Of a stretch of 24,000 nucleotides of DNA, positions 3,594-24,000 are shown piece after piece. The translations under genes were made by a program, and so were the position numbers. The notes below the pieces were generated by a model. That model was given only the letters and a program-made list of their open reading frames with translations, did not search any database and had not been told where the DNA came from. Source of the stretch: Rhizobium sp. P38BS-XIX (GTDB lineage Bacteria > Pseudomonadota > Alphaproteobacteria > Rhizobiales > Rhizobiaceae); NCBI RefSeq assembly GCF_012641435.1, contig NZ_JABAIJ010000004.1:78428-102427 (forward strand). The letters are read 5' to 3'. How positions within the stretch are numbered: the stretch's first letter is position 1; each line of letters opens with the position of its first letter.

Positions 3594-3902
3594 CTAGGTT
3601 CGCATATTGGCAATGGTCATCTCGCTCAGATCGCGAATAAGCCCACTGACGTCGCCCCCAAGTTTTATCCAGTTTTGAGTTTGCTCCAGCGGTCGTGTGA
3701 AGCGCTCCCCGATTTTGGGCCAGACCACGAGAACCGGAAAACCTGATATACTTTGCGGACCTTGAACGGAGCCCCCGGGCCTGAACCAGGCTAGAGAGAT
3801 TGAGCGAATGGACGGGAGTTGCATGGAATTCACGACCGCAAGAAATTCAGACATAGATTTTATTTCAAGTGGCTTTTCTGAGATCAAGACGCTCCCCACC
3901 AT
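3594..3902 (-). CDS. hypothetical ORF (102 aa), doubtful
   Basis: The ORF has plausible composition. Its stop is followed by AGGAA and the ATG of a further 69-aa ORF. Its 5' end overlaps the likely GNAT start on the other strand, and I see no family recognition. Confidence 0.25.
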   Translation of the reverse strand: MVGSVLISEKPLEIKSMSEFLAVVNSMQLPSIRSISLAWFRPGGSVQGPQSISGFPVLVVWPKIGERFTRPLEQTQNWIKLGGDVSGLIRDLSEMTIANMRT

Positions 3903-4374: not shown

Positions 4375-4418
4375 CACTAAGTTTGACAGAAGCCATCCTT
4401 CCCAAAGGAGACAAATAC

Positions 4419-4718
4419 CTATTCGAACCTGAGCCAGGCTTCACCTTCTACGAGCCGACCACCATGCTCGCAGGCATCGCCCATGCGTGCAACCTTCTTG
4501 CCGTTGATCGTGGCTACGGACGAGCCGCCTGTAATCGCTGCCGTCGTCGGAACACCGGTACATACGCATTTATCGCCGACGGTCGCGAGAGGAACGCCGT
4601 TCACCTTGACGAAGCCTTGCTGGCACGATTGCACCGGCCCACCTACGTGGGGCTTCGGACCTGGATCGCACATCGGACAGACGTGCATTTGACCCTTCAA
4701 TGTTGCCGGGCTTCCCAT
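4419..4718 (-). CDS. PAAR-domain protein (T6SS spike tip)
   Basis: The 99-aa sequence MGSPATLKGQMHVCPMCDPGPKPHVGGPV...GDKCVC...INGKKVARMGDACEHGG matches the PAAR repeat pattern. SD GAGGGA lies 5 nt upstream of the ATG at 4718. Confidence 0.9.
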   Translation of the reverse strand: MGSPATLKGQMHVCPMCDPGPKPHVGGPVQSCQQGFVKVNGVPLATVGDKCVCTGVPTTAAITGGSSVATINGKKVARMGDACEHGGRLVEGEAWLRFE

Positions 4719-4848
4719 TCATATCCCTCACAAGTCATATGCGGGTTCGCCCGCTTCGTGTTCAACGGTCACCGCATCGGGACGCTATTTCCTGAGCCAG
4801 ATGTGACCAAGCTAAACATCACCTCGCTCTGCTCATCACTTTCCGGGT

Positions 4849-5808: not shown

Positions 5809-5821
5809 TTTTCACCTCGCT

Positions 5822-6472
5822 TTATTCCAGTCCGTCGCCAATGCCACGTCCGAACAATCTGTCTATTTGATTTTGGTTGGGAAGTGGGCTCTTTTGATGC
5901 CTGATGGGAGCGTCGTCACCCATCTTCTCGAACGCTTTATCGACTTGGGACTTCAGGTCGCCCATCTTCCCTTCGCATTCCGGCTTCACCTTCTTGATCG
6001 CGTCCATCGCAATATCTTTGACCTGACCAAGCGTAGCGCCCGGCCCAAGGTTTTTGACCGCCCGATCCATCAGTTGATGTACACTAGTGTGTTCGGTATC
6101 ATCAAGGCAGATGCTTGGCCCGTCATCCAGCGAGGGCGCGTTTGGCAGCCGCAGGCTGTCATCTAGTCGTTTTCCGGCTCGAATCACATAATCGGCAATG
6201 ATGTGGTGTTTCTGCTGGTTCTCGCCGCATTTGAGTTTGTTGTACTTGTCAAATTTGCATTTGTCTTCTGGCGGGCAATTACCTGTTGCACAGGTGGCGG
6301 TGTCGGCCTTGGTCTGCGCGTCAGCCTGTGTGTCCGCATTCGGGGTATCCGAACTCAACCCAACGGCCAAAAGGATACCGCCGCCGATCCATGTTGCGGC
6401 GTTGACGAGCGCGGGACCCCAAACCGGTGCAGTTTCTACTACGAAATACCCTGCAGCCACTGCGGGAGGCAT
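5822..6472 (-). CDS. putative T6SS effector: hydrophobic N-terminus plus Cys-rich HNH/EndoVII-like C-terminal region
   Basis: The 216-aa ORF has an ATG that overlaps the TAA of the DUF4123 gene (TAATG at 6470-6474). Residues 1-40 are hydrophobic (AVAAGYFVV...WIGGGILLAVGL). QKHHIIADY (H89, H90), LPN(111)AP and TEH(128)TSVH(132) give an HH...N...H...H spacing reminiscent of the AHH/GHH/SHH toxin clades. Confidence 0.7.
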   Translation of the reverse strand: MPPAVAAGYFVVETAPVWGPALVNAATWIGGGILLAVGLSSDTPNADTQADAQTKADTATCATGNCPPEDKCKFDKYNKLKCGENQQKHHIIADYVIRAGKRLDDSLRLPNAPSLDDGPSICLDDTEHTSVHQLMDRAVKNLGPGATLGQVKDIAMDAIKKVKPECEGKMGDLKSQVDKAFEKMGDDAPIRHQKSPLPNQNQIDRLFGRGIGDGLE

Positions 6473-7422
6473 TAGCGATTCTCCCTTGCATAATTGAGAC
6501 TGGCCTGAAGCAACAGCTGTACACGCTTGTCGGGAGAAACAGCGGGATCGCGCGCCGTCATGACTTTGACGACGTCAGGATTTGTCGTGAGTTTGCCTGA
6601 TGTCGCGACCTGCATATAGCTCCACCGGGCAAGTGCGGCCTCGCTTTGAACGCCGTATTTGCGCCCCTCATTTATGTAGCCTTGCGTTACCGCGGACAGT
6701 TCGGCGTCGCTCATGGCGGCCGTTTGCGATGGGGCGACATTGCGCAGGTAATTGCAGATCCGCCGCTTCGAAGCCTGTGCCATCAAATCGTTCGTGGCCG
6801 ATATCTCACTTGGCGTAATAGCAAGCAGGCCTTTCGGCATGGGCGGGAGGTTGTTGGACTTTGTCACCCGCTTCATACCGCCATAGTCTGTGGCATTCAT
6901 GAAGATGGTCGTCGCCGGGCCGAGAATTCGTGCGAACTGCGACTTCGTAAATGAATGCAGCAATGATCCCAGTACGTTCGGGTCCCAATGGCGGAACAAT
7001 ACACGCTCATAGACAACTTTCTTGCCTGATCGGCCATCATTGCCCGCGATGCGGTCGTCCGGGACCAGAATCCGGTTGAGGGTTCGCAGGTGCTTGTAGA
7101 GCGCCGCCTCTCCGGCCGGACATGACCAGAACACAGCACAGGGCTTTTCCAACGCAAAGTCTGCAACCTGATCGCAGATATGCCTGTTGACGAGCGAAAC
7201 CAGCCACGGTCCGTCGCGCCGCCACTTGGGATCGCCTCCCGCGAGGAACAATGACCGGGCGGGAATGTCCAGACTGAGCAACTCATGCTGCAAATCATCG
7301 AAATGCGCGCCATCAAGCACGGCAAACGCTGGTCCCGCCGCCATCATGTCGGCGAGTCCCGTACGAAAACGCGTTGAGAACGCGTCCTCTTCGGCTGGCA
7401 TTGCGGTTTGCATGGCTGTCAT
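6472..7422 (-). CDS. DUF4123-domain T6SS effector adaptor/chaperone (Tap/TEC-like)
   Basis: FAVLDGAHFDDL, GPWLVSL and VLFRHWDPNVLGSLL correspond to the conserved DUF4123 blocks (YALLDGA, PWLV, FRFYDPRVL). The ATG lies 4 nt after the vgrG stop, with GAGGA upstream. Confidence 0.9.
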   Translation of the reverse strand: MTAMQTAMPAEEDAFSTRFRTGLADMMAAGPAFAVLDGAHFDDLQHELLSLDIPARSLFLAGGDPKWRRDGPWLVSLVNRHICDQVADFALEKPCAVFWSCPAGEAALYKHLRTLNRILVPDDRIAGNDGRSGKKVVYERVLFRHWDPNVLGSLLHSFTKSQFARILGPATTIFMNATDYGGMKRVTKSNNLPPMPKGLLAITPSEISATNDLMAQASKRRICNYLRNVAPSQTAAMSDAELSAVTQGYINEGRKYGVQSEAALARWSYMQVATSGKLTTNPDVVKVMTARDPAVSPDKRVQLLLQASLNYARENR

Positions 7423-7426
7423 CTGT

Positions 7427-9874
7427 TCAGGTCCTCACAAAAGGTGTTGAGGACTTCGCCATCAACCTGGGACAAGAGGGGCCTTGGCCCGGTCCGCCCT
7501 TTCTAAAGTCAATTTGGTCGCCTTCGATATCGATCTTAAGGGCGTGAAGCTTGATGCCTTGTTTGTTGATGGCAATGTAGCCGCCTGGAGCGGACAAACG
7601 AATCTCGGTACCGGCGTAGATCTCCCACACCTTGGACTCACCGTGAAATTTCTCCCCCGAGGCGATGTTGTAGAGTTCGCCGACCTGGACATTGATCTTT
7701 TTGCCGACGTTAGTGTGCTGTTCTTTGCCCACCTTTTCAATAAATGTTTGCCCCACATGTGTGACTTTACTCATGCCGATCTGTTCGACGCGGGCAATAC
7801 CAATGCTGTCATGCTTGAAGGTACCGGCTACGGTGTACATCATCCCCGGCAGGGAAAAGAGACCGCCGACATCCTGGCCCACGCCGGCTCCGGCTCCGGC
7901 AAGAGCCGTGCCAGCATCTGCGCGGGGGCTGGGACCGGACACCACGCCCTCCCGTGCGCTCAATCCCTCGCCTGATAGGAATCCCAGTGCCGAGGAAGCA
8001 ATCGACATGGCGAAGCCACCAAGTTCCGCGCCACCGCCACCAGCGATCTGACCCGCCTGCTGCAAGAGGCTGGCGGTTTGCCCTGCGAGCCCGGCTACAC
8101 CGGCGAGCGCTCCGAGAGCGCCAGCACCGGTCCCTCCCACGGTGAGGTGATAGGAGCCTCCGATTTCATGCTTCTGGTTGTTGGCGACCTCGACCGATCG
8201 ATTACCTCCGACGGAATGAACGTCGTGGCTGTCGATACGCGCCGTGCGGTCGTTGAGCACACGGGTCGTGTGGTCCTTCTGGGCATGGAAAAACATGTTC
8301 TCCCCGCCCGTCTTGTCTTCCAGCGAAAATTCGTTGAAGCCAACGCTCTTATGGGAGTTGGAGCGGAAGGTCGAACGTGTCTTGTTCGCCGGCAAATCGT
8401 AAGGCACTGTTTGCTTGGCATTGGGCGCGAGACCTAAGACCACAGGGCGATCCGGATCGCCGCCGATGAACGCAACCATTGCCTCCTGACCGATACGGGG
8501 GATGATCTGTCCGCCCCAGGTCGACCCAGCCCATGCTTGTGAGACCCGTATCCAAGGGCTATCGCTTCCGTCCTTCTTGGCCTTGCGATCCCATGGCATC
8601 CAAAGCTTAATCCGACCATGCTGATCCGTGTGGATCTCTTCTCCTTCCGGCCCGGCGATAAAGCCAACATGCACGCCGTCGATGCGCGGCTTTGAGGTGG
8701 TTCGGTGTGGCGTCGCCGGGACCCGGGCTGGCAGTGCAACAAAGCGGTTGGAATATTCCGGCTCATCCTGATCGGCCGCCTCGTAGGAATGATCGCGCGC
8801 ACTCACCTCCAGCTTGTGGACGACCATCTCTTCGAACTTGTTGGCGGGATTGGCGACATCATAGGGCTGGAATTTCTGGCCGACCTCCAGGGTGCGGACG
8901 GTCGAAGCGCCTTCGGTGAGATTGTGATCGACTTCGGTGGCCTGCATGCGCCACCTTGATTGCTTCTCCACCTCGGTGCTGTCGATGCCTTCGGATGCGG
9001 AGCCGACCCCGTAACCGCCGACGACTGAACCGAACTCGAACAGCTCGTACTTCTGATTGCCGTTGAGTTCGATCAACGAGGGAGCGTTTGCCGTGGGAAT
9101 ATCGACACGCAGGAAATTGTAATCCGCACCCGTGCGACGACCGGGAGAGTATTCGAAGCGCTGCAGCCAGTTGTTGATATGGTTGCGATCGGAACTCCCG
9201 AGAGCATAACGGACCTTTCCGTCTGCCTCATTGGTGGGCTTGTCATAACCGGATTGATGATCGGCAAGGACAAGGACGTGCTTGGCCGAGACCGCTCCTT
9301 TATGGCCACCCTCATGTCGGAAATAGTAGAAAATCCCGTCTGCTTCGAGACGACGAGTGAGGTAATCGAGATCCGTCTCGCCAGCCTGGACGGCATAGAC
9401 CATCGGCTTGGGTTGATGGATCACGCCCGATACGTCCGGCGCGGGCAAGCCGTGTTCGGAGAGCAACATCTGTGCAACATCGATACTCGACAGATGCTGC
9501 CATGTGCGCCAGTCCGATTTCTGGCTGAGCAGAAACAGTTGCGGCCTGATCACCAGCGTATAGGCCCGCCCGCCCCTGGTCAGCGGCGGGCCGGCCGTCA
9601 CGCTCTGAACGAGCCCGTTCCAGGTCTTGCGCTGTCCTTCTCCGATTTCCAGCGACACGTCGGCAAGCGTGGCAATCAACCTCTTGGGGTCTATCTCGCC
9701 ATCCTTGGCACGTACATCGATGCGCAAGTCGAACAGTTCATTGATCCCGGCTCGATAATAGAGGCGTTCTGCCAGAAGGACATCGGCTCCCAAAACCGTT
9801 TCAATCCGGAGGGTTCGATCAACCTGCGAAAAACCTTCGCTCATCAGCGTATCGCCAAGTTCGTCAAGCGCCAT
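7427..9874 (-). CDS. vgrG: T6SS spike protein VgrG (TssI) with Gly/Ala-rich C-terminal region
   Basis: The 815-aa ORF has a typical VgrG N-terminus (FSQVDRTLRIETVLGADVLL...INELFDLRIDV), a gp27/gp5-like core (GIFYYFRHE, RVSQAWAGSTWGGQIIPRIGQEAMVAFIGGDPDRPVV) and a beta-helix repeat region. Confidence 0.95.
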   Translation of the reverse strand: MALDELGDTLMSEGFSQVDRTLRIETVLGADVLLAERLYYRAGINELFDLRIDVRAKDGEIDPKRLIATLADVSLEIGEGQRKTWNGLVQSVTAGPPLTRGGRAYTLVIRPQLFLLSQKSDWRTWQHLSSIDVAQMLLSEHGLPAPDVSGVIHQPKPMVYAVQAGETDLDYLTRRLEADGIFYYFRHEGGHKGAVSAKHVLVLADHQSGYDKPTNEADGKVRYALGSSDRNHINNWLQRFEYSPGRRTGADYNFLRVDIPTANAPSLIELNGNQKYELFEFGSVVGGYGVGSASEGIDSTEVEKQSRWRMQATEVDHNLTEGASTVRTLEVGQKFQPYDVANPANKFEEMVVHKLEVSARDHSYEAADQDEPEYSNRFVALPARVPATPHRTTSKPRIDGVHVGFIAGPEGEEIHTDQHGRIKLWMPWDRKAKKDGSDSPWIRVSQAWAGSTWGGQIIPRIGQEAMVAFIGGDPDRPVVLGLAPNAKQTVPYDLPANKTRSTFRSNSHKSVGFNEFSLEDKTGGENMFFHAQKDHTTRVLNDRTARIDSHDVHSVGGNRSVEVANNQKHEIGGSYHLTVGGTGAGALGALAGVAGLAGQTASLLQQAGQIAGGGGAELGGFAMSIASSALGFLSGEGLSAREGVVSGPSPRADAGTALAGAGAGVGQDVGGLFSLPGMMYTVAGTFKHDSIGIARVEQIGMSKVTHVGQTFIEKVGKEQHTNVGKKINVQVGELYNIASGEKFHGESKVWEIYAGTEIRLSAPGGYIAINKQGIKLHALKIDIEGDQIDFRKGGPGQGPSCPRLMAKSSTPFVRT

Positions 9875-12292: not shown

Positions 12293-13990
12293 ATGCCCCA
12301 CAATAACCAGAAGGCCGCCCTTGAGGCGTTGAGAGCGTTTGAGAAAGAGGCTGACAAGGAGGTGGCGGCGCTATCCATCTGGGGGTTGTCGTTCCGGGCG
12401 CTGTATTCGAGAATGCTCCTGATTGCCGATGCAGCGTTCAGCGGCGGACGATTTACCGGACATCGCCCACCGGATGCTGAGAAGGGTGCCACCACGCTGG
12501 CGCGTCTCTCGCTCTGCAGGGGCTATCTCAGTCGCACTGGCGCAGCCACGCAGAAGACATTGCGCAAGGATCTCGAGACGGTAACACAGCAGATGCATGC
12601 GGAGATCGGGAAGACGTTGATCTATGCCCATTTCAGCGAGCTGATGCCGTTCGCACACCGCGGCGCCTTCTGGGTTGAGCAGACGGGGGATGGCTTCCGT
12701 TTGTCATATCCGACCGAAGCCGCGGAACGGTTCGAGGCGCTGGACGTGATCGCCAGCGAACTCGCTTTGACCGTACTTGATAACGACTTTCGTGTTGATG
12801 TGGCGTGCTATCTGCGCATGATAGACACGTGGCCCCGCGGAGGAGGAAAAGACTTCATAACGAGCCTCCGCGCGGCCTACGATTTCCACTTGAACGGTGT
12901 TCACGAGAACATTTTTGTCGGCGCGACAGCCTATGAGCGGGTACTTGGATTCACCCATGATGAATTCCAGCGGGTAAGGGCGGCACTGATGGCCTATGCC
13001 ACATGGTGCCTCAACATGGCGAAGGCGGCGGAAGCCGGCGCTATTCAAGAGCGGGGAAAGACGCGAGTTCGCTACCTCCATACAGTCCACGAGTGGGTTG
13101 CTCCGCTTCATTCGTCGAAACAGGTACTGAGCGTGATCGATCAGCTCACCAAGGTTCCACGCAACCGTGTGAACAAGATCCTTGCATATTTTCAGGAGCC
13201 TGCAGTAGGTGGCCAAACGATCTCCGGCGACGGCTATCTGGCGCCGATCCAAGTCCTTGGCGACGCATTTCTCTTGTCACCGCGCTCGCTGCATCTGATG
13301 ACGCCGGAGCGGAATATCCTCTTTGTCCTTAATCAAGTCGGTCGCAAGCAGTTCGACGAACTAGTCTCGGCAGAACTCGAGCCTTCACTGCTTGCCCATG
13401 CGCGGCCCATTTTCGAGGCCCTGCCTGGCGTCGTGAGCAAGCCAAATGTCATCTGGGATGGTCGCGAGATCGATCTGGTTGCGTATTGCCAGAAGACCAA
13501 TTCGGCGGTTCAGGTTCAAGCGAAAGCGGCAATTCCGGCGAATGGCGCCCGCATGACCCGACAGGTGGAAGCCAACACGTTGAAGGCCGTCGAGCAGCTT
13601 CAGAAGATTGAAGACCTGAGCCCGGCTGAGAAGGACGAGATGATCCGAAAGGAATTCAAGGTCCATGCCGAGAATGTCCGATGGTCGTCGGCAGTCCTGT
13701 CTCGGTCTTCGTTCGGCACCGTCAAGGCCTGGCAAGCTATGGAGGGCCGCGCCGCCCTGAACCTGCAACTGCTGCAGGGCATCGCCAACACCGCCGCCGG
13801 TGAGGAGGCATTCGATCTTGCCACCCTTCCCGAGCACGCCATGAAGTCGATCAGCGATATCGCGGAAAAGGGTGTCGTATCCTGGCGTGAGGAAACGCTC
13901 GACGTGTTCGGGACAAAGATCAAGATCCCGCTTCTCGACCTCGATAATGAGGAAATTACTCGATACCGGGCAGCATTGATACGGCGCTGA
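12293..13990 (+). CDS. hypothetical 565-aa protein with C-terminal PD-(D/E)xK-like nuclease core
   Basis: This is a long ORF with no credible competitor. The core runs SAELEPSLL (helix E), then EID(394)LVAY, then VQVQ(409)AK(411); D is at nt 13472-74 and K at 13523-25. No Walker A motif. Confidence 0.85.
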   Translation: MPHNNQKAALEALRAFEKEADKEVAALSIWGLSFRALYSRMLLIADAAFSGGRFTGHRPPDAEKGATTLARLSLCRGYLSRTGAATQKTLRKDLETVTQQMHAEIGKTLIYAHFSELMPFAHRGAFWVEQTGDGFRLSYPTEAAERFEALDVIASELALTVLDNDFRVDVACYLRMIDTWPRGGGKDFITSLRAAYDFHLNGVHENIFVGATAYERVLGFTHDEFQRVRAALMAYATWCLNMAKAAEAGAIQERGKTRVRYLHTVHEWVAPLHSSKQVLSVIDQLTKVPRNRVNKILAYFQEPAVGGQTISGDGYLAPIQVLGDAFLLSPRSLHLMTPERNILFVLNQVGRKQFDELVSAELEPSLLAHARPIFEALPGVVSKPNVIWDGREIDLVAYCQKTNSAVQVQAKAAIPANGARMTRQVEANTLKAVEQLQKIEDLSPAEKDEMIRKEFKVHAENVRWSSAVLSRSSFGTVKAWQAMEGRAALNLQLLQGIANTAAGEEAFDLATLPEHAMKSISDIAEKGVVSWREETLDVFGTKIKIPLLDLDNEEITRYRAALIRR

Positions 13991-14114: not shown

Positions 14115-16091
14115 TCAGCTATCCACTCTTGGCTGTCGCCAGCCATGTCTGCCCGTCAAGAGCTGGATGTCAGCAAACGCTATCTCGGTCCAGAAATCTC
14201 TCGTCCCGAACGTGAGGTGCTTTAGAGGACGGAATGCGGCAGACACGGATGGCGCACGATCCAGTGCATAGAGTAGCTGGCCAAGGTCCATCCAATAAAC
14301 ATCGATGAAGTATGGGAACAAATCGAGCTCTCCTCGGTCATTGGTGGGCGCGATCTTGGCGAGCCGATCAAGAACCTCGGTTGTTGCCGCATTGAAGTCC
14401 TCAATAGCCTTTACATCTTCGGCCATAGGGCTGAGCGAACCGAACCTTCGGCCCAGAATTGCCGGCATGGCATTGGCGGTGAGCAACCGGTCCATGATTG
14501 GGCCGTAGCTCAGCGGAGAAACAGCCACCTTGAAAACCGTGAGATCTTCCGTCTTGTCGTCACCGGAAGTCAGGGGCGGTAGACCAGTCTTACGAAGATA
14601 GAAGTCGTGGCGCACCAGTTGCTTCAGCATCGCAAGGAAACTATCGGCGTAGTCGATAAATCCCGAGTAGATGATCCCCGATCGTGCTTTGGCGGTGAGC
14701 GACTTGGCCTTAGTCTCGAACAGCACGAGCGCGCCTTCATCCCGCGTGCCGACGTCAAGTTGAAACACATGGTTGTCGCGTTCGTAGGATACATCCGGCG
14801 CCACAATGGGTGGCGACTTCTCGCGGCACGCGGCCGCAATCGCCAATTCCAGCACCTGCCCCGTAACTTCGGCAGCTCGCGCTTTAGGTAACCGTTGCCA
14901 GATCAACCTAAACAGCATCTCGCAGGCGGCGTTGACCGCAAGCGGACGCGGCAGCAAGGCGACGCTGTTGTCCGGTGCTTCGAAGATCAGAAACCTGTCC
15001 TGGTTTCGGCGGTGACTGTCTGCCGGTTCTTTGTAGCCGGGATTGACCTTGTCTTTGTTGCCGAAAGCTTCGCGCCAAAGGATCGGGTGCGAAGCACGAA
15101 CTGGCCCGGATGCGAAAAGCCGAAGTTCGGTATCGTGACTCTGAACGAGGAGGAGCCGCAGCTCGTTCAGTAGATCGATTAACTTGAACCCGAGCTTTTC
15201 CTCATCGACCGGCTTCAGGCAAGCTTTCAGAGCATCGCCAATTTTCATCACGATGAGCTGCGGCGCCTGCGGAAGCGAAAACAGCTCGCGCCATGTGATA
15301 CTTTCCCTCAGAACCCGCTCGAACTCCTCTGGCGGAATCCCAGCCATTTGCTCGTACTGGCTGTATCGCTGGCAGTCGTGGATGGCGGCAAAGTCTCTCG
15401 CCAAATCCGTTAGCGTTTTCCAGGCAACCTCTGGCTTGTTTGCGCTGCCCGGAGAGCCCAGGTTAGCGATGGCAAGTGTTAGGAGCCAGCCCCATGGATA
15501 GGCGGGCTCATACTCTCCCGGCGTTGATGATACCCTGTTGCCGAAGATGAAAAACCCGTCATGGACTGCCTTGCTCTCAACCAATACCCGAAAAATCTGC
15601 TGGGCGCAGGAAGCTCCCCCTAAAAGCTTCACCAGCGAGATAACCTGATCGCAGATTTGCTTGACGGTTTCCAGCGATGCATACGGTCCGAAAGCCGAAG
15701 CTTCAATTCTATATCCTCGCTTCATCAGGCGACCCGCGGCCTTACCAACATAAACTACCCGCTCGGGCCATGACGGATCCTTAAGAAAGTCAGGCTGCTT
15801 CTTCGCCCAGCATATCGCTTCCATCCACGCCTCTGGGTGGTCGAAACCGACATATCGATCCCCGGACACATCCTTGCTCAATATGCCAAATGTGATTGCA
15901 ACTGCTTCGGACATTAGACCTGCTGAGGCCAAAATCTTAATTGAGTGCGACAATCGCCTGAGATCTGCTGCGTGCAAGCCACCTTCTGCAGCCGCTAGAA
16001 GTTTTCTGGGCGGACGCGGGTCGGCGAAGCAGCTCTCCTCGGCGTTCAGGAAATATTCCTCGAAAAGCTTATGATCATCTTTGTGCAGCAT
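14115..16091 (-). CDS. hypothetical 658-aa protein with PD-(D/E)xK nuclease core
   Basis: Long ORF. The core runs GQVLELAI (helix E), then FQLD(446)VG, then LVLFE(459)TK(461)AK; D is at nt 14754-56, E at 14715-17 and K at 14709-11. This is the classical D...ExK arrangement. No Walker A motif. Confidence 0.9.
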   Translation of the reverse strand: MLHKDDHKLFEEYFLNAEESCFADPRPPRKLLAAAEGGLHAADLRRLSHSIKILASAGLMSEAVAITFGILSKDVSGDRYVGFDHPEAWMEAICWAKKQPDFLKDPSWPERVVYVGKAAGRLMKRGYRIEASAFGPYASLETVKQICDQVISLVKLLGGASCAQQIFRVLVESKAVHDGFFIFGNRVSSTPGEYEPAYPWGWLLTLAIANLGSPGSANKPEVAWKTLTDLARDFAAIHDCQRYSQYEQMAGIPPEEFERVLRESITWRELFSLPQAPQLIVMKIGDALKACLKPVDEEKLGFKLIDLLNELRLLLVQSHDTELRLFASGPVRASHPILWREAFGNKDKVNPGYKEPADSHRRNQDRFLIFEAPDNSVALLPRPLAVNAACEMLFRLIWQRLPKARAAEVTGQVLELAIAAACREKSPPIVAPDVSYERDNHVFQLDVGTRDEGALVLFETKAKSLTAKARSGIIYSGFIDYADSFLAMLKQLVRHDFYLRKTGLPPLTSGDDKTEDLTVFKVAVSPLSYGPIMDRLLTANAMPAILGRRFGSLSPMAEDVKAIEDFNAATTEVLDRLAKIAPTNDRGELDLFPYFIDVYWMDLGQLLYALDRAPSVSAAFRPLKHLTFGTRDFWTEIAFADIQLLTGRHGWRQPRVDS

Positions 16092-16849
16092 CGGGCCACA
16101 CTATTCGATCCATCAGTCTTGCAAAAGGTTCCCGCTATCAGAAGGAGTGTATTAGAATAACTGCTTTTACATCCGATCATTGTTGAATGACCACAGTAGG
16201 TGCGCTCACCGCTCAAATGTGGCAACCATGGAGCGACCACTATATGACTGAGCTGCTTAAAACCTGACGTGCAGGATACCAACCCATCACTGCCAAAGGA
16301 GTTACGCAATCAGACCGGCAGCTCTCCAACGTCGGCGTTCCGATTTATATGGCTGACATAAAGCTGCGAAGCTAGCGAAGGTTTCGCCTTGAAGGGATAA
16401 GAACCGCCGGCCCGTAATCTGATTTGGCTAAGCTATTGAAAAACATCACCGCGGCGTGACGTTAGTCTACGTGACCGAACACACCGACCGGCGGATTTCA
16501 TGCGAATCCAACGTTGTGCGACACTTATTACCAGCACGAGATCACAGGGGTTTTTCATTTCCTCTCGCGAATGCTCAAACATCCGCGACCTAATTCGCGC
16601 CAACAGGGTTGCCATGCACATTGCCGGCGGGCAAAAAGATCATGGCCATATTTCCCGGCATAACCTATTTTGAGCGGTTGTTAATCTTAGACAGCGCATT
16701 ATAAATTGAGCCGCCGCGAGAGCCAGAGGCGTCCGCTCTGGACAGCCAAATGCGCTTTCTGCGGCTTGACGGCGTCAGTCACTCTCTTGGGCGAAACCCA
16801 TGCCCGACGCAGTACCGGCTCAGGTCATCGTTCTTCACTCGATAAGTCG

Positions 16850-17839
16850 TTAGAGGAAAATGTTGTTGCCGACGTCCATGAACGAGGCGAAGCCAAGATG
16901 ACCTTCGAGATGAATTTTCACCAGATAATTGCCATCTTGAAGCTGTGCAGGAAACCGCCAGCTCGTTGACGGCAGGGGTGGTCGCGCTGGGCTAGAGGGA
17001 TTTCGGTAGTCGACGCGCTTTGCCCCGTCAGACGACCACACATCGACACGGATATCGATAGGTGCGTAATCCTGTCGAGGGCTGAACTGTGCAACAACGC
17101 CATCACGCGCGATCGCGACTTTTTCGACGTAGACGAAACGCTTGTCGAATACGAGCAGGTCATCAGATACCAACACGCGGTCGCGCCACCCGTTGGCGTC
17201 AGGTCCGAGCATATGGAGGAGCGTCGATGCCTCTGCATCCGTCCTGCAGTAAATCCATTGCAAGGTTTGAGCCAATGACATCGGTGACGTCACCAAAACC
17301 TCCGCACACCGGTGATCAATGATTGAGCGATCACCTGCGATATCGCCTTCATGATAGACCTTGTGGAAGGGTATCGACGAAAAGTAGGCCTCGGTGTCAC
17401 CCACTGAAGCAGACGCGAGCTGCATGTTCCGGTCGCTAAAGCACACACCATCCCGAAGAAGGACGCTCCGAGCGTCGAAAACGAACATGATCAGGATCGG
17501 GGCATGGGAATTCTCGCCGTGGGCGCACTCGCCAGGCTTGCGGATACCCTCGATATGCCATTGCGTCGGAGTTCGCGGCCGGAAGTAAATCCGACCGAAC
17601 TCGTGTGCATGGTTGCGTGCGTCGATCACGCCAACGCCGGCAACATCCCTCACCCGCGCATTCTGGGCGTCGTTTCTCGACCTGAGATTCCCGTCTCTCA
17701 GGATTGCCACCGCGTTTTCGATTGGCGCATGATGAAAAAGCCTTGCCGGCCACCGACCACGATAGGGTCGGTAGCTCCCCGCCAGATTTGCCGACCAGGT
17801 GGCGATATGGCTGTCTACAAAAGCACCGCTCAGTGCCAT
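16850..17839 (-). CDS. darT: DarT-like DNA ADP-ribosyltransferase (DUF4433) with ~95-aa C-terminal extension
   Basis: RLFHHAPIENAVAILRDGNL, FGRIYFRPRTP, VCFSDRNMQ and HRCAE(180)VLV correspond to the conserved DarT/DUF4433 blocks (YHITHxxNL, YVPFYFxPRSP, FTDRH, AEFLV). I place the start at ATG 17839 (M87 of the listed 415-aa ORF), which overlaps the macro gene stop by 10 nt. Confidence 0.88.
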   Translation of the reverse strand: MALSGAFVDSHIATWSANLAGSYRPYRGRWPARLFHHAPIENAVAILRDGNLRSRNDAQNARVRDVAGVGVIDARNHAHEFGRIYFRPRTPTQWHIEGIRKPGECAHGENSHAPILIMFVFDARSVLLRDGVCFSDRNMQLASASVGDTEAYFSSIPFHKVYHEGDIAGDRSIIDHRCAEVLVTSPMSLAQTLQWIYCRTDAEASTLLHMLGPDANGWRDRVLVSDDLLVFDKRFVYVEKVAIARDGVVAQFSPRQDYAPIDIRVDVWSSDGAKRVDYRNPSSPARPPLPSTSWRFPAQLQDGNYLVKIHLEGHLGFASFMDVGNNIFL

Positions 17840-18741
17840 TGCAGCGTCATCTGTTCGGTTGACTGGGCATCGGCGGGCGCAATGCTCGTTGCCGGTTGGG
17901 CCAGTTCTAGTGCCAGCTCGGATGCCGCGTCGCCGAAGCGCTGTATTTCGATGAGACGGACGAATGGTAGCAAAGCAAGGAGCGATATCAGCGCGCTCCC
18001 ACTTTCGAACGCCGCCCAGCCGGCCTTCTCTTGAGTGAGAAAGCCCTTCTGGAGGGAAACCCAGATGCCCCAGAGGTCTTCGGCGTCGAAGGCCCACTCT
18101 ACATTGGGCGTCGATAGCCGGAGTTCGGTCCCATCATACTCAGCGCTGAGCCGTTCGTGCGAGCTCAAGTCGATGAAATTCGGTCCGGCGAGCTCGATGG
18201 CACGCGGAAGCATAGACAGAAATTCGGTGTAGGAGGGTGCAGTATCGATCTCCCCTGCCAGGATAGATGGCACGTGCTCCAGGTGTTCAGGCAAGCCGAT
18301 CTTCTTATCGAAGTCGTGGATAAAGATCTGGATTTTTAGGGGGGCTAGATAATGCTCCATCACCGGCTGCACGTTGTCCCAATTGAGACCTCCATTGCCA
18401 CAACCCAAACGCGGAAACGAGATTTCTCGGATTCCGAGCTCGGAGAAGCCACTTACGAACCTCTGAAGGCCCTGCTCGATCCATTCGAGTTTCGACGGAT
18501 TGCGCCAATGATCCTTCGTCGGAAAGTTCAGAACCCATTGGGTCGATCCTTTCCAAAGCCACAGCTTTCCCGGCCGAAGGAGCTTTTGCTCGCAGATCCT
18601 GCGATATGCCGCATACATCTGCGGCTCGCGGTCCCGGAACTCCTTTGCGATCCCTTTGCCCATGACTCCAACGCAATTCACTGTGTTGACCAGTGTCTGG
18701 GCGGACGACTCGAGCAGGCTGGTTCGACGGTAGATCAACAT
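17830..18741 (-). CDS. darG: DarG-like macrodomain protein (ADP-ribose hydrolase antitoxin candidate)
   Basis: From M39 of the listed ORF: MLIYRRTSLLESSAQTLVNTVNCVGVMGKGIAKEF...WVLNFPTKDHWRNPS...ISFPRLGCGNGGLNW. This is the DarG/TARG1-type macrodomain signature, followed by a ~150-aa C-terminal domain. The 38 upstream codons look non-coding. Confidence 0.88.
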   Translation of the reverse strand: MLIYRRTSLLESSAQTLVNTVNCVGVMGKGIAKEFRDREPQMYAAYRRICEQKLLRPGKLWLWKGSTQWVLNFPTKDHWRNPSKLEWIEQGLQRFVSGFSELGIREISFPRLGCGNGGLNWDNVQPVMEHYLAPLKIQIFIHDFDKKIGLPEHLEHVPSILAGEIDTAPSYTEFLSMLPRAIELAGPNFIDLSSHERLSAEYDGTELRLSTPNVEWAFDAEDLWGIWVSLQKGFLTQEKAGWAAFESGSALISLLALLPFVRLIEIQRFGDAASELALELAQPATSIAPADAQSTEQMTLQWH

Positions 18742-19326
18742 AGTGTTTGCCGCATTCCTTCCAACATAGTCTCGCGAGCATAGGTAGAACGAAAACGTGT
18801 TGATGTGAAGACATAGGCGGCATGTGGCATTGAAATCGAAATAGGCGCCCTTCAAAACCTCGAGAGGATGAAACTCGTATTGTCCCTCCCAACTGAAGTG
18901 GGTACCTGCTGATCAGTGACTTAACCTTACAGGGATGAGGAGATTTCACCTGGACGAGGAGGCCGTGGAGGTAGGAATTCGCCTAATTTTAACCGACCAA
19001 AGACGCTGAAGTTGAGGATCGAGCAGGAAGGTGCGATCTCACGATGGTAGCCAGGTCTTCAGCTGACGGAAATCGCGTACGCTGTTCTCGACAACATGAT
19101 CGGAGATTTTCTAATCATCGGAGTTATGGATAGCCAACTCGAGTAACAGTTTTCCCCTGCATGTTTGGCAAAAATGATACTCCCTGGCTAACGCAATGTC
19201 CTTGAACAATTCACGGGAAGGTAGCAATCTTGTAAGGGCTGACGGGAGCAAAAAATGGGCGATATGGCTTGTCCGTAGTGCCCCCCAAGGGGCCAAAGAA
19301 CTAGTTTGAAAAGATAGAGGGATTTG

Positions 19327-19647
19327 ATGGAAACTTGGCAAGCTGCTTTTGTTGGCGCTATTGGGGCGATTTTGCCTGACCTGCTCAAGGCAATCAGAAA
19401 GCGCTTCCAAAAACGGCCGGCTTATCTCGGTACGGGTTGGTATTGGTCGATGCTGGCCGTTTTGGCTGTATTGGGCGCCGTCGTCGTGGCGTTCCGCCAT
19501 CCTGCCGATGCCTTGGAGGGGCTGGCGTTTGGGGCCGTCGCACCGGTTTTCCTTGCTCAAATTCTCGGCGTCGAGAAAGATGACCATTTGGGCACCGAAG
19601 CTAAGCCCGACTTTATTCACCAGGTGCGCCTGTGGTGGGGGTCGTGA
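19327..19647 (+). CDS. small membrane protein (106 aa, 2-3 predicted TM helices)
   Basis: GAGGG lies 5 nt upstream of the ATG at 19327. Hydrophobic helices: AAFVGAIGAIL, WYWSMLAVLAVLGAVVVAF, LEGLAFGAVAPVFLAQILGV. The stop TGA at 19645-47 overlaps a GTG of the next gene. Confidence 0.65.
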   Translation: METWQAAFVGAIGAILPDLLKAIRKRFQKRPAYLGTGWYWSMLAVLAVLGAVVVAFRHPADALEGLAFGAVAPVFLAQILGVEKDDHLGTEAKPDFIHQVRLWWGS

Positions 19648-22600
19648 GAATTGTCGATGCGTCAATCAGGACCAGTCTGTTCAAACGAACGCTCACGCTG
19701 AGCGACATCGATCGCGCGGCCGATTTCATAGTGCCAGGACGAAATCTGCCGTTCGCACCCAAACCAATCAACCTTTGGAGTGAAGACGCTCAAAAGCAGT
19801 TTGATTCCTGTTTCGGTTCTTCGGGGATCGCCAGCGATCTCGACAAGCGCATGTTCAACAGAGCTGGTCCGACGATTCTTCGTGTCCCTGCAGCTGAAGC
19901 AGATCTTGTGCCGTGGGAGGCCTTCCAGCGTCAGCTGGATACGGCGAACCGTCGAAAGTTGGCGATTGTCAGGGCGATCGACCAAGATAAAGCCTTCAGG
20001 TTCGACAAGACGCCGTCGCGGATGCGGATCCTGGCGCTGGTGGGGCATCCGGGCGACGACACGGCCTTCGATCCCGGCAACGCTCAAACGTTTCTCACCT
20101 CTGTGTTCAACGCCGCCGTCACCGCAAATCCTCGGGTCGAAAGAGCGGTAGTGACTCAGCTTCGCCGCCAAAACCTTGCAGACTGCATCAGCGTGGTCAC
20201 CGATCTCAACCCTAACGTCCTTCTCTTCTTCGGTCACGGCGGGCATTCGCCGCCCAGAATACGACTCGCCGCAGGCGATGACGGCTGGATGGAGCTCGGC
20301 GCCTTTGTAGACGAAGTCTTCATGAACGCGTCCCAGCGGCCCGCGTTCTGGATTTTCTGGGCATGCTCACTTGCGGAGAATGCCAACCAGCCCGACCAAC
20401 ATCTCGATTCACCCCAGATGCTCAGTGTCCTTGGAGAGCGGGGCGGCATCGCGGCGTTGGCGATGCGATCGCGCATTCAAATCAGAACAGCGCGGGTCAT
20501 GCTTGAGGCACTCCTCAGCGCTATCGCTGCAGGTGAGCCTCTCGAGATCGCTGCCGGTCTATCGCGTGCGGCCTGCCTCGAAAGCTTCCCTGAGACTCGT
20601 GGGCGCATGGACTACGCCGCGCCGGCTGTCTGGTCGCGAAGTGAACCTGTCGACCGCATAACTTGGGGCGCAGACGAAGCCTTCCCAGCGTCATGGGTCG
20701 CGTTGCCCTTGATCGCAACCGGAAATGAATTTCCGGAATTCGCCGCCGGCAGTGCAGATGTCGATGATGTGACTGCCTCTCTCGCCGAAACTTGGGCTAC
20801 CCCGGGCCGTTTTTTCATCTCTACGAGCAATGGCGGAGAATCTGTCGAGGACGTTGCAGTTAGAGCGAGGCTCGTTGGCGTCGCGGCAATGATCCGTAAG
20901 CGGACCGGGCGCCCCGTCGTGCCGGTTTTCTTGCGCACAGGAACCACGTTCGACCAACGTCTGGGAAACTGGGCTGGAGATGCGCACGGCTATCTCGATC
21001 CGCGCTTTCATGACCGCGAACTGGCGATGGCGATCGCATCGATCGCCACCGAGCGCCTAAACGGCCTGTCGCGGTTGTTGGCCATTCCAGAGGTGGTCGT
21101 GATATTCTCCGAACCGCCAGATCGATCAGCCGGATGGGACGTATTGGCGAACACGCCGACAGGCTCCTCTGTTGTCGTGCTCGGGCGGTTTCCATCTGCC
21201 GAAACGGCAGGTTGGATTTTGGATACGCTTATGTTTCGCCCAAACGCTGAAGAACTCTCGAACATCATTGTGGAGGAGCCGCTCGGCTGCGCTATCCTTG
21301 GTGTGATCGAGCGACCTATCGCGTTACGTGAGGTAGAGCGCATGACGGGGTCGAGTGCAGGGGCTCTTGATCGGCTTGACCCTCTCCTCGTGCGCGTTGG
21401 CAGCCGGCGCGTCTTAGCGGAAACTGTCCGCAAAACGCTCCGCGACAACCTCGACAAAAACGTGGTCGTCGAAGCCCGTGAAAAATGCATTCACTTCCTC
21501 AGCGAAAACTCGGTTGAACATGACTTCGACGCCACTGTCGAAGTTTGCAACCAGCATCTGGCTCTCGGCCGCGACGCAGCAGCAGCGGAAGTGGTCAACG
21601 CCGCATGGGCGGTATGCGGCGACCTTTGGTCGGTCCAAAAACGCCTGCGTTTGTTCAATCTGGCCGCCACCCGCGCAAAACTTTGCGATCTACTCCAAGA
21701 CGATCTTTTGCTTGCTTTAGCGCAAGCAGCCGTCACCGCCCAGGAAACACAAGTTGCTCGGCTCGTCCTCGAAGCTTTCCGTCCGCGCTCTGCGACGCAC
21801 AAAGCTCGTCGACACGCTATGCTGGCCGAATGTCTAAAAGCCGATGCCGGCCGGCCGGCGGCGATCGCGGGGATGTGGCGGCATGCCAATGATGCCCTAG
21901 TAAGCGCCGAAGCCGCTGTCGCCGCCGGCGAGGGTATGACGGAAACCGATGTGCTGGCGTTCCGCCACGATCTCGCTCGGCTCGAGCAATATTTTCGACA
22001 CGATTATCAAGGCGCCTTGAAGCTGTACCAAGACATCCGTGACCTGCTTCGCACACAGGCTAAGAATGACATGGCATTGGCCTACCTGTTTGCTGCTTCA
22101 TCCCGCAATGCCGCAGAATGCCTACTCGATCCCGCCCAACGACCTCTCGACCCCACCATCCGAGAGCAAGCTGAGGATCTTGTCGAAGAGGGACTCGGTA
22201 TGGTCTCGATGTTTTCCCTCAAGCAGGTCGAAGCGGAGCTTCTGTATACCCGGGCCAGAATCGCCGAAGCCGCTGGCGACGATATCGCCGCGGCCGGGCT
22301 CCTTGCGCAACTGGCAAGTGGATCCAGCGCCCGAAACTATCCCCTGTTGGCTGCGATCGCCAACGATCGGCTTGCTTGGAACGAGCAGAGGCAGGGCCGC
22401 CGCGTTTTTAGCTGGGAAGATCTAGAGGGGCGCTTACGGATGCTCGATCTCTTCGATCATTCGTGGGCTGCAAGGGTTGCCATCAAAACCAGGCTACGTG
22501 CAGCCAAATTACTCTATCACCGCGGTTCTCAGCTCGATCTGGATCGGGCAAGACAGCTGCTTGAAGAGAACCATCGTGAATTCAGGCGCCTGACGCATCT

Positions 22601-22769
22601 GTCTGGAGGCGAAGATGCCCAAAACGCCGCTGGCACATTCTCTGGCCTCGACGTGCTTTCCGGCGGCTCCAGACAAACCTGGCGGGAATTTCTGGTCAAT
22701 CCGCTCTCACAGAGGATTTCGGAGGAATGGAAGAAGCGAACTGCCAAGGAAATGTGGGAGGCTGCGTAA
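19632..22769 (+). CDS. CHAT-domain (caspase-like) protease with C-terminal TPR-like helical repeats
   Basis: 1045-aa ORF with a His-Cys dyad in CHAT context: NVLLFFGH(202)GGH (nt 20235-37) and PAFWIFWAC(245)SLAE (nt 20364-66). The C-terminal ~400 aa are alanine/leucine-rich helical repeats (e.g. YQGALKLYQDIRDLL). The start is GTG 19632 (AGGTG upstream) or GTG 19644 (GTGA overlap). Confidence 0.88.
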   Translation: MVGVVRIVDASIRTSLFKRTLTLSDIDRAADFIVPGRNLPFAPKPINLWSEDAQKQFDSCFGSSGIASDLDKRMFNRAGPTILRVPAAEADLVPWEAFQRQLDTANRRKLAIVRAIDQDKAFRFDKTPSRMRILALVGHPGDDTAFDPGNAQTFLTSVFNAAVTANPRVERAVVTQLRRQNLADCISVVTDLNPNVLLFFGHGGHSPPRIRLAAGDDGWMELGAFVDEVFMNASQRPAFWIFWACSLAENANQPDQHLDSPQMLSVLGERGGIAALAMRSRIQIRTARVMLEALLSAIAAGEPLEIAAGLSRAACLESFPETRGRMDYAAPAVWSRSEPVDRITWGADEAFPASWVALPLIATGNEFPEFAAGSADVDDVTASLAETWATPGRFFISTSNGGESVEDVAVRARLVGVAAMIRKRTGRPVVPVFLRTGTTFDQRLGNWAGDAHGYLDPRFHDRELAMAIASIATERLNGLSRLLAIPEVVVIFSEPPDRSAGWDVLANTPTGSSVVVLGRFPSAETAGWILDTLMFRPNAEELSNIIVEEPLGCAILGVIERPIALREVERMTGSSAGALDRLDPLLVRVGSRRVLAETVRKTLRDNLDKNVVVEAREKCIHFLSENSVEHDFDATVEVCNQHLALGRDAAAAEVVNAAWAVCGDLWSVQKRLRLFNLAATRAKLCDLLQDDLLLALAQAAVTAQETQVARLVLEAFRPRSATHKARRHAMLAECLKADAGRPAAIAGMWRHANDALVSAEAAVAAGEGMTETDVLAFRHDLARLEQYFRHDYQGALKLYQDIRDLLRTQAKNDMALAYLFAASSRNAAECLLDPAQRPLDPTIREQAEDLVEEGLGMVSMFSLKQVEAELLYTRARIAEAAGDDIAAAGLLAQLASGSSARNYPLLAAIANDRLAWNEQRQGRRVFSWEDLEGRLRMLDLFDHSWAARVAIKTRLRAAKLLYHRGSQLDLDRARQLLEENHREFRRLTHLSGGEDAQNAAGTFSGLDVLSGGSRQTWREFLVNPLSQRISEEWKKRTAKEMWEAA

Positions 22770-23575
22770 TGGGAACCGGAAGCTTCGGAGGTGGTAGCGG
22801 ATCCGTCGGCGGCGGCGGCTCGGGAAGCGGATCGAAAGGGCACGGCGGCACCTCGAATGGAGCAGGGAGCGACGGTGGCGGTGGTGCAAAGGGTTCTCTG
22901 TTGCGTGCCATCGAAGGTTTGCGGGAAATTACACGGCGCCTCACCGCGGACCCAGATCAGGGGCGTTTGACTCGAGTCATCAATGAGTTGCTGCGCGACC
23001 GGGGCAGAGCTACTTTTTTTAGCGACATGCTAACAGACGGGTTTGCCAACGCGCTTCTCGGCGACCTCCTCGCGATTGGCGCGAGACTGCGAGCCGGTGA
23101 GGGCTGGGCGCAAATTGCGCAAAGCTTCGGGGTCGATGCAGGCCTAGGATCGATGCAAGCCCTTTGTGACGCGTGCATCGACCAGGCCTTACGAGCTAGG
23201 GCCTACCAGGTTGATGACCGGTATATTGAAAGCGCCTCGGCGGCCTTCCGAGAGTTCATGGTCGCGTCGGTCGGCGGAGACCGCATTCTGGCAACCCGTG
23301 GCGACGTTGCGCAGGTCGATGCAGCGATTGACCGCAATGTCTTCGCCAATGCGATCGGCGGGTTCTTGGGCGACCTTATTGGCCAGGTCCTTCAGGCCGA
23401 GTCCTACGTCGACCTGGGCGCGGCAACTCCGGCGGTCCAGCAAGCCTCCAATACTCTGGCGATTGCAATCTACGACCGATTCGATGCGAAGTTCGTCCAA
23501 AAAGGAAAAGCCGAACGGCGCGATGCGCTTCGCGTCATCGGTGAAAATTACTTTGCCTTGGTGACCGCCTCATGA
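22769..23575 (+). CDS. hypothetical 268-aa protein with Gly-rich N-terminal tail (QatB-like?)
   Basis: The ATG at 22769 overlaps the CHAT gene stop (TAATG), and GGGAGG lies 7 nt upstream. The protein begins [27 protein letters not shown]...GGGGAKGS and continues as a helical domain. The QatB resemblance is from memory only. Confidence 0.8.
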
Positions 23576-24000
23576 GCCTCAAAAACAAGAACCAGGTAAC
23601 TGTCGTCCTGCAGAAGGGACCGCGCCCGGAAAGCCAAAGCCAAGTTCTCGATCTGGATACTATCGCCTGGCACGACGGCATCGGAATAGGCTCTGAAGGA
23701 CTGCACCCTCGCGCACTCGATCTTCTCGAAATCATGCGTGTGGTCTGGGAAGTTGAGCGCTACGTCCCGAAGCGAATTTCAAGCCAGCGGCTGCGGCAGG
23801 TCTCGATCGCCATGCCGCTGCGCGAGCCGTCCGGTTGGTCCGTAACGGCGATGCAGGCGCTGACGGCAATGCTCCGCCTGCTTGGCAATACAGAGTGGCA
23901 GTTCGATTTCACGCAGCGGCAGGGATCCAACGCGCTCGACGCGCTTGCGGCGAACGCCGCCCGCACTAAGTCTGGCAAAGCAGAGACGGTCTCGTTGTTT
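23572..24000 (+). CDS. hypothetical protein, 3'-truncated by window edge (possible N-terminal domain of a QueC-like PP-loop enzyme)
   Basis: The ATG at 23572 overlaps the previous stop (ATGA). I translated 143 codons with no stop to base 24000 ([16 protein letters not shown]...[17 protein letters not shown]...[11 protein letters not shown]...KAETVSLF). It is absent from the ORF track because it has no stop in the window. Confidence 0.7.

Follow-up and report, generated by a model that had tools for sequence, protein, structure and literature searches.

We describe here the right-hand end (positions 19,327 to 24,000) of a 24,000-nucleotide (nt) stretch of Rhizobium sp. P38BS-XIX (contig NZ_JABAIJ010000004.1, positions 78,428 to 102,427 of the forward strand), which was analysed over its full length and is referred to below as the window. 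Four consecutive open reading frames (ORFs) on the plus strand encode in turn a small membrane protein, a protein with a caspase-fold CHAT domain followed by a STAND-like module and a TPR-like array, a QatB-like protein and the beginning of a QatC-like PP-loop enzyme. It is probable that these four genes open a five-gene cassette directed against phage, which would be a structural variant of Qat and would operate by the mechanism proposed below.

The locus and its gene boundaries

Gene 1 (ORF1; 19327..19647, + strand) starts at an ATG, with an in-frame TTG at 19324, and encodes a protein of 106 amino acids (aa). Gene 2 (ORF2; 19644..22769, + strand) starts at a GTG that overlaps the ORF1 stop codon as GTGA, and the product read from this start, of 1041 aa, is 100% identical to HGP17_14880 of Rhizobium sp. 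P38BS-XIX, which is annotated as hypothetical. Gene 3 (ORF3; 22769..23575, + strand; 268 aa) starts within the TAATG junction at 22767–22771 and has a Shine-Dalgarno sequence, GGGAGG, 7 nt upstream. A start for ORF3 at ATG 22727, which matches the 282-aa annotation of the orthologue in R. johnstonii, was rejected in favour of 22769, because the homologues begin at the same MGT and the Shine-Dalgarno sequence precedes 22769. The annotation of the R. johnstonii protein (282 aa) thus exceeds the correct length of 268 aa by 14 residues. Gene 4 (ORF4; 23572..24000, + strand) starts in the ATGA at 23572–23575 and is cut by the window end, leaving the first 143 aa of an enzyme of approximately 430 aa.

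Start and stop codons overlap at every cassette junction within the window (GTGA at 19644, TAATG at 22767 and ATGA at 23572). An earlier reading of this DNA, made from the letters and the ORF translations (the sequence-only reading), had claimed four consecutive plus-strand ORFs with overlapping boundaries, an MGT N-terminus for ORF3, an ORF4 running off the window as ...AETVSLF and the absence of a canonical Walker A motif. All four points were confirmed, the second by homologues that share the same start and the last by a motif scan, which found no [AG]xxxxGK[ST] in any of the four ORFs. A promoter and terminator scan of the region was uninformative.

The gene 1 product has hydrophobic segments at residues 6–23, 36–60 and 63–83 according to hydropathy, which agrees with its earlier designation as a membrane protein. 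It would have two to three hydrophobic helices and carries a C-terminal WWGS motif, and it gave no significant family match among the Pfam, NCBIfam and PADLOC models. The position of this gene is nevertheless kept in 11 distinct loci, despite an identity that falls to 13–21%.

A CHAT protein with a STAND-like scaffold

The gene 2 product can be divided into a CHAT/caspase-hemoglobinase-fold domain (19866..20648, + strand; approximately residues 75–335), a central alpha/beta module that is STAND-like by fold (20796..21233, + strand; approximately residues 385–530) and a winged-helix-like segment leading into a TPR-like alpha-solenoid (21246..22766, + strand; approximately residues 535–1041). 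The range of the central module was derived from lengths, the Foldseek output being without residue ranges. An exhaustive profile search of the family gave 610 representatives, with 131 at E≤1e-30, and nearly all members are about 1,050 aa long (approximately 1,000–1,100). The Pfam CHAT model (PF12770) was matched by 40 of 46 diverse full-length members, the best at 3.5e-18, and TPR_12 and other TPR models by at least eight of the same 46. An independent tie of the N-terminal domain to CHAT is provided by a 662-aa CHAT protein (Pfam 7.8e-8) encoded in a Polyangium metagenome-assembled genome (5722-7707), which shares only this domain with ORF2 (residues 49–229) and was the sole distant match of that partial kind. 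There were also weak matches to Peptidase_C25 in the CHAT region.

The candidate catalytic residues are His198 (codon 20235-20237, motif FFGHG) and Cys241 (codon 20364-20366, motif FWACS), and they are the same His-Cys dyad that the sequence-only reading had picked out as H202 and C245 in a 1045-aa numbering. Both are invariant in 46 diverse homologues, as are W91, E92, R110, P190, R308 and W330, and the CHAT domain is the best-conserved part of the protein. In the AlphaFold model (pLDDT 87, pTM 0.84) the domain has the topology b1-a-b2-a-b3(H198)-a-b4(C241)-loop-a-b5-a-a-b6, which is of the caspase-hemoglobinase type, with His198 ending strand b3, Cys241 ending b4 and a disordered loop following at residues 242–252. 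Exactly those family members that have no His198 (see below) carry a second histidine, H135, which follows strand b1 in LVGHPG; in some others this position is Asp.

From approximately residue 600 onwards the model is all-helical. The top Foldseek match in the PDB was 6mfv_A, a STAND ATPase with TPR (E 3e-9, 734 columns), and the matches also included SAVED-CHAT (8tl0_C), Csx29 (7zoq_A), SAMD9, AVAST5 and many TPR proteins. An active STAND ATPase was considered for ORF2 and rejected, since the family has no conserved Walker A. In the family alignment the P-loop position is variable and without GK[ST], which makes ATP-driven switching of the protein unlikely. The claim of the sequence-only reading that the module lacks an ATPase therefore holds as far as QatA and Walker A are concerned, neither of which is present, but ORF2 does contain a STAND-like module with a degenerate P-loop. 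From the model, the protein reads as a CHAT effector, followed by a pseudo-STAND module and a TPR sensor, the TPR-like solenoid presumably acting as a sensor or scaffold.

The QatB-like and QatC-like proteins and the downstream ASCH protein

Among 26 homologues of the gene 3 product, which are 25–66% identical overall, the N-terminal 12 residues are near-invariant and form the most conserved part of the protein. M1, G2, G7–G9, S10, G11, G14 and G16 do not vary at all, and conservation reaches at least 90% at T3, F6 and G15. This putative acceptor motif belongs to a Gly/Ser-rich tail (residues 1–40; 22769..22888, + strand), and in the structural model a disordered tail of approximately 40 residues (pLDDT <60) is followed by a confident all-helical domain. 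When this model was compared with the PDB using Foldseek, QatB (9y01_A) gave the only substantial TM-score, 0.50, all others being ≤0.24. Sequence searches of the PDB with ORF3 and with its profile returned only low-complexity or chance matches, and the same was true of ORF2 and its profile.

Work on canonical systems has established that QatB cannot do without Gly2 and its tail (PMC13279940) and that this tail is inserted into the active site of QatC (PMC13376578). In QatBCD, mass spectrometry has revealed an N-terminal QatB peptide, GTSKAY, that is modified with NDG (PMC13639016). With its Met-Gly start, conserved N-terminus, disordered tail and adjacency to the ligase gene, which it overlaps by ATGA, ORF3 bears the defining features of the substrates of QueC-family N-terminal ligases, and by analogy it is presumed to be the substrate of the gene 4 enzyme.

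An observation on canonical QatB was made alongside. In two plasmid qatABCD loci the RefSeq QatB proteins are 181 and 197 aa long, and the ORFs reach upstream to approximately 283–288 aa (3395-4246 and 3380-4246 in locus coordinates), with true starts re-read from the plasmids as MGTSKGYGG and MGTSGSSRG. These upstream MGTS starts indicate that the RefSeq annotations omit the functional N-terminal acceptor tail, a loss of the QatB N-terminus through annotation that has been warned of (PMC13279940).

The 143-aa fragment of gene 4 matched the QatC models of NCBIfam (6e-8) and PADLOC (2e-6), and is 93% identical to the full-length 430-aa orthologue of R. johnstonii. The latter reads ...AETVALFSGGLDS, with the SGGLDS PP-loop starting two residues past the window end. 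It scored 127 bits (7.6e-37) on NCBIfam QatC (NF041925) and 1.8e-33 on PADLOC QatC, and matched the solved QatC chains 9zee_B and 9vlk_A at 6e-18. SGGLDS and the zinc motif C(x)19CGxCxPCxxRR are present in the R. johnstonii orthologue and in six further family members. The enzyme also retains ENG, HP and P(x)4TK, which together with the zinc motif are on the motif list of the QatC cluster (PMC13329287), and the R/F adenine contacts, which are among the QatC active-site residues (PMC13279940). The profile and PDB matches, SGGLDS and the zinc motif of the orthologue all support the earlier suggestion that ORF4 is a QatC-like protein with a PP-loop. However, 127 bits is far below the equivalog cut-off of NF041925, which is 280 bits, the identity to canonical QatC is 27%, and there is a C-terminal extension outside the QatC model. 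Judged by its sequence, the enzyme is a separate sister subfamily of QatC and not an equivalog.

The gene that follows the QatC-like gene in every orthologous locus encodes an ASCH protein of 140–160 aa. Products of gene 5 orthologues matched PF04266 at 6.8e-8 and 4.4e-7 and the ASCH domain of ASC-1 in the PDB at 1e-12, and they carry the ASCH motif GxKxxExR in the form G-R-K-x-I-E-V-R. The TatD-like gene that the sequence-only reading had asked about downstream did not appear, its place being taken by the ASCH gene in the orthologous loci.

Conservation and genomic context

Synteny was assessed with profile hidden Markov models (HMMs) of the five proteins against the six-frame ORFs of all retrieved loci. 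All five genes were found in the same order and on the same strand in 11 distinct loci, which belong to Rhizobium, Mesorhizobium, Paraburkholderia, Allosphingosinicella, two Bradyrhizobium (including plasmid pUSDA123-1) and five metagenomic contigs. Across the cassette loci the identity of the CHAT protein ranges from 87% (R. johnstonii) to 19%, and the GC content of the locus from 33% (one of the metagenomic contigs) to 61%. The CHAT, QatB-like, QatC-like and ASCH genes are kept together in one orientation in all examined loci with enough flanking DNA, and a CHAT gene accompanied every QatB-like homologue whose locus was checked. The recurrence in the same order and orientation indicates that the gene set is more than chance, and the co-conservation that had been expected of it is seen across genomes. 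An alignment-based search gave matches to the cassette in six of 185,579 species-representative genomes; a query with a single protein gave none.

Two of the cassette loci are on rhizobial plasmids. In the window the cassette adjoins DarTG, as the sequence-only reading had recognised and as the Pfam and PADLOC models established. Its neighbours elsewhere include type I restriction-modification genes, Lamassu and Shedu domains, HipA, a ubiquitin-like conjugation operon, integrases and insertion sequence (IS) elements, and known defence genes adjoin the cassette in at least five independent loci. Gene identities, conserved motifs, co-conservation and a defence-island context are what these data establish. 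In R. johnstonii the ubiquitin-like conjugation operon (15725-18213; Multi_ubiq, Prok-E2_E, ThiF/E1 and BubE) directly follows the ASCH gene, so that two different protein-conjugation immune modules would be adjacent there. Upstream in the same locus are an AAA and Peptidase_S8 pair and a Trypsin_2-Endonuclease_NS protein.

Comparison with known systems

The QatABCD system is said to have been reported as an anti-phage system by Gao et al. in 2020. The cassette resembles it in having a QueC-family PP-loop enzyme with the N-terminal extension and motifs of the QatC type, in the overlapping upstream gene, whose product begins with MGT and continues as a long disordered tail and then a helical body best matching QatB, and in its defence-island setting. 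It differs from QatABCD in having neither QatA (a KAP ATPase) nor QatD (a TatD nuclease), but instead the CHAT-pseudoSTAND-TPR, small membrane and ASCH proteins. It differs also in the divergence of its QatC-like enzyme (27% identity, a sub-cut-off score, His at Thr280 and the C-terminal extension) and in a QatB-like helical domain that is not detectably homologous by sequence. Among the Pfam, NCBIfam and PADLOC models, there was no QatA or KAP (PF07693) match at E≤0.1 for the four ORFs or their orthologues. The HMMs of the cassette reach canonical Qat loci only via QatC, at approximately 100 bits, compared with 235–740 bits within the family.

The combination of a QueC-family ligase and a substrate with a Gly-rich N-terminus from Gly2 is shared with type IV CBASS (Cap9-CdnD-Cap10), where the acceptor peptide of CdnD, GGSGGSFGSG (10.1101/2025.04.06.647259), resembles the N-terminus of ORF3. 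Both systems also add a protein of a nucleobase-binding fold, which is Cap10/TGT in type IV CBASS and ASCH in the cassette. However, the ligase of the cassette is of the long QatC type and not of the minimal Cap9 type, and the cassette has no CD-NTase, cyclic-nucleotide effector or TGT homologue; no CD-NTase or TGT domain was present among the cassette genes in any locus examined.

With the TPR-CHAT proteins (Csx29 of the type III-E Craspase, SAVED-CHAT and the gasdermin-activating proteases), ORF2 shares a caspase-fold His-Cys CHAT domain fused to TPR-like repeats, a switchable protease being the presumed effector arm. It differs from them in its domain order, which is an N-terminal CHAT domain, a STAND-like module and C-terminal TPR, and the cassette has no CRISPR, SAVED or gasdermin partner. 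A literature search found no CHAT system reported to have QatBC-like, ASCH and membrane proteins as its partners. The Avs/STAND proteins (AVAST5, 9nc9; STAND-TPR, 6mfv) resemble ORF2 in placing an effector at the N-terminus, a nucleotide-binding-like domain and winged helix in the centre and a TPR sensor at the C-terminus, but ORF2 lacks Walker A, its P-loop segment is unconserved and it occurs with four partner genes.

The cassette is unnamed in PADLOC 2.0 and NCBIfam, where only the sub-threshold match to QatC was obtained, and in PGAP, which labels its genes as hypothetical, "CHAT domain-containing" or "ASCH domain-containing". Full-text literature searches gave nothing relevant on QatC together with ASCH, and no paper at all on QueC with "CHAT domain" or on QueC-like with caspase. 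The part of the QueC-family survey supplement that was available to us (PMC13329287) mentions neither ASCH nor CHAT. According to the same survey qatA or qatD is a neighbour of only approximately 34% of the QatC-cluster genes, the others being left undescribed (PMC13329287). The searches of PADLOC 2.0, NCBIfam, PGAP and the literature thus agree with the sequence-only reading that this is not an already-named system, and the five-gene cassette is apparently a structural variant of Qat that was previously undescribed.

Proposed mechanism and alternatives

By analogy with the systems above, we propose that the QatC-like enzyme activates a carboxylated small molecule with ATP and joins it to the QatB-like protein at the alpha-amine of Gly2, a residue that would be exposed once the Met is removed, at the tip of the flexible Gly/Ser tail. 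In QatBC and Cap9-CdnD the ligated molecule is 7-carboxy-7-deazaguanine. In the cassette the base could be other than deazaguanine, given the replacement of Thr280 by His. The CHAT-pseudoSTAND-TPR, ASCH and membrane proteins would stand in for QatA and QatD, taking over sensing, tag reading and the effector step. The TPR array may bind a phage cue or the tagged partner, the nucleotide-binding-like module in the centre of ORF2 has lost its P-loop, and assembly would activate the N-terminal CHAT protease. The ASCH protein, with its PUA-like fold, could either read the nucleobase tag or take it off, which is the role of the TGT-like Cap10 in type IV CBASS. The small membrane protein could be an anchor or an effector that damages membranes, and the protease might release or activate it.

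A bolder version of this mechanism, which we put forward as an improbable one, is that the tagged N-terminus of the QatB-like protein is itself the ligand of the switch, its guanine-like tag docking either in the P-loop-less STAND-like pocket or in the pocket of ASCH and thereby, in place of nucleotide binding, triggering assembly and the protease. The protease would then either cut the tail, freeing a tagged peptide signal, or activate the membrane protein to kill the cell. If this were true, a protein-linked nucleobase would be an immune second messenger or licensing factor.

Several observations weigh against the cassette being an anti-phage variant of Qat. Gene 5 and most of gene 4 are beyond the window and were deduced from the orthologous R. 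johnstonii locus, the proteins of which are 87–93% identical, and the anti-phage role is one that we infer from homology and neighbourhood only. Neither the ORF2 of the window nor its 20 closest relatives gave any Pfam match, CHAT included, whereas 40 of the 46 distant homologues match CHAT, and the CHAT assignment is therefore transitive. The CHAT/TPR protein of the sequence-only reading is upheld by this transitive homology and by the fold, there being no direct Pfam match for the window protein. Furthermore, three of 21 close relatives have lost His198: the residue is Ile in two of them, one being a widespread multispecies Mesorhizobium orthologue (19 contigs), and Asn in the other. This suggests that proteolysis may be dispensable in places; Cys241 stays invariant where His198 is lost.

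In the case of ORF3, the fold match to QatB 9y01_A has a probability of 0.91 but a weak E of 0.63, and no QatB model (PF28083, NCBIfam QatB or PADLOC QatB) matched ORF3 or its orthologues, although canonical QatB sequences do carry PF28083. When 26 ORF3 homologues were compared with 28 canonical QatB sequences by hhalign, only the first 12 columns aligned, to MGTSGSSxGxGS, with a probability of 1.3% and no profile-level similarity of the helical domain. Sequence-level homology of the helical domain to QatB was rejected on this result, pairwise BLASTP also being blank. The descent of the helical body from QatB is unproven, and the fold match (TM 0.50) leaves room for a remote homology. The QatB-like label of the sequence-only reading is thus sustained by the MGT N-terminus, the Gly/Ser tail, the gene position and the fold, but not by sequence homology.

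In the QatC-like enzyme, Thr280, which is essential in P. aeruginosa QatC, is replaced by His in the motif MTRHAHP, invariantly so in the seven family members read, and the ligated group may for this reason be other than deazaguanine. The idea of ASCH as a YqfB-type amidohydrolase was downgraded, since Glu occupies the position of the Thr nucleophile (PMC6972931), and this renders an eraser role speculative. Lastly, plasmid pMspAR10a of Mesorhizobium sp. AR10 (1-4743) has four cassette genes and no detectable membrane gene; three IS110 transposase genes lie just upstream of them, which suggests that the membrane gene was lost by insertion.

The replacement of Thr280 leads to the alternative that we take most seriously, although we consider it doubtful, namely that the architecture is as described but that the N-terminal glycine receives from the QatC-like enzyme some group that is not 7-deazaguanine, or is only adenylated by it. 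This residue is invariant as well as essential in QatC, yet is His in every cassette member examined, and QatC already has no counterpart of the Tyr/Asp pair with which QueC and Cap9 read CDG, its chemistry having been called unresolved (PMC13279940). On the other hand, the NDG-modified N-terminal peptide of QatB was found in canonical QatBCD (PMC13639016), and the QatC-like enzyme has kept all of the ATP-binding and zinc motifs. It is very unlikely that the locus is an ordinary QatABCD that has drifted, with ORF2 as a degenerate QatA (a STAND/KAP-type NTPase) and the remaining genes as fast-evolving orthologues. While the C-terminal two-thirds of ORF2 are STAND-like and ORF2 lies where QatA would be, upstream of the QatB-like gene, the QatA and KAP_NTPase models miss it at E≤0.1, Walker A is absent family-wide, and its best-conserved part is the CHAT domain, which QatA lacks. 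Drift would also have to account for an unrelated ASCH fold replacing QatD/TatD, for the extra membrane gene, and for cassette HMMs that reach canonical Qat only via QatC (approximately 100 against 235–740 bits).

It is also unlikely that the cassette is a regulatory or developmental pathway of protein modification and not of immunity, comparable for example to signalling under the control of the CHAT protease HetF in cyanobacteria. A distant member of the ORF2 family does weakly match the HetF model, no defence HMM set calls the cassette, and ASCH domains are mostly tied to RNA metabolism (PMC6972931), as the ASC-1 matches in the PDB would also suggest. The distribution of the cassette is sporadic, however, its loci are on plasmids or adjoin integrases and IS elements, known defence genes lie beside at least five independent loci, and the closest characterised relatives, QatC with a QatB-type acceptor, act against phage. 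A chance neighbourhood of two unrelated modules, one being the CHAT-TPR protein with its membrane partner and the other a minimal QatBC-like pair with ASCH, seems to us highly improbable. CHAT-TPR proteases do pair with quite different partners elsewhere, as in Craspase and the gasdermin systems, and the pMspAR10a locus shows that the membrane gene can be absent. It is also the case that QatBC alone suffices for defence in P. aeruginosa (PMC13279940). Nevertheless, the CHAT, QatB-like, QatC-like and ASCH genes stay together in one orientation over the whole identity range of 87% to 19%, every junction in the window has overlapping start and stop codons, and the CHAT gene was present with every QatB-like homologue checked.

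Structural papers of 2026 left the reaction of QatC and its downstream steps unresolved and found QatA and QatD to be partly dispensable. If the cassette is a Qat variant as we propose, its accessory partners (the protease, the ASCH protein and the membrane protein) may help to explain the function of the tag, since it keeps the ligase-substrate core but swaps both accessories for activities that are easier to read out. An active cassette would be a second, independent system in which to ask what recognises the tagged N-terminus, whether the tag is a licence or a signal, and what the killing step is. The cassette also shows the QatBC module to be portable between accessory sets, like the Cap-type modules in CBASS, and such portability could explain some of the approximately two-thirds of QatC-cluster genes that have no qatA or qatD neighbours (PMC13329287).

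Other genes in the window

Directly upstream of the cassette and divergently oriented is the DarT-DarG pair (16850-18855, − strand), a toxin-antitoxin/defence module in which DarT was identified by PF14487 (2.8e-17) and PADLOC DarT (7e-11) and the macro-domain DarG by PADLOC (3e-57). The two ORFs overlap by approximately 270 nt as listed, so the true start of DarT is probably further downstream. A type VI secretion cargo cluster is located at 4849-9874 (− strand) and comprises VgrG (7427-9874; Phage_GPD and Gp5_C), a DUF4123 chaperone (6472-7422) and a pair of ORFs (5822-6472 and 4849-5808) that match no family and could be an effector and its immunity protein.

Between this cluster and DarTG are two large ORFs, of 565 aa (12293-13990, + strand) and 658 aa (14115-16091, − strand), without a match in Pfam, NCBIfam or PADLOC; they are uncharacterised candidates in the same variable island. 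The left part of the window contains a DDE transposase (1647-2906, − strand; DUF772 and DDE_Tnp_1) and a GNAT acetyltransferase (3808-4374, + strand), which fits a mobile or variable region.

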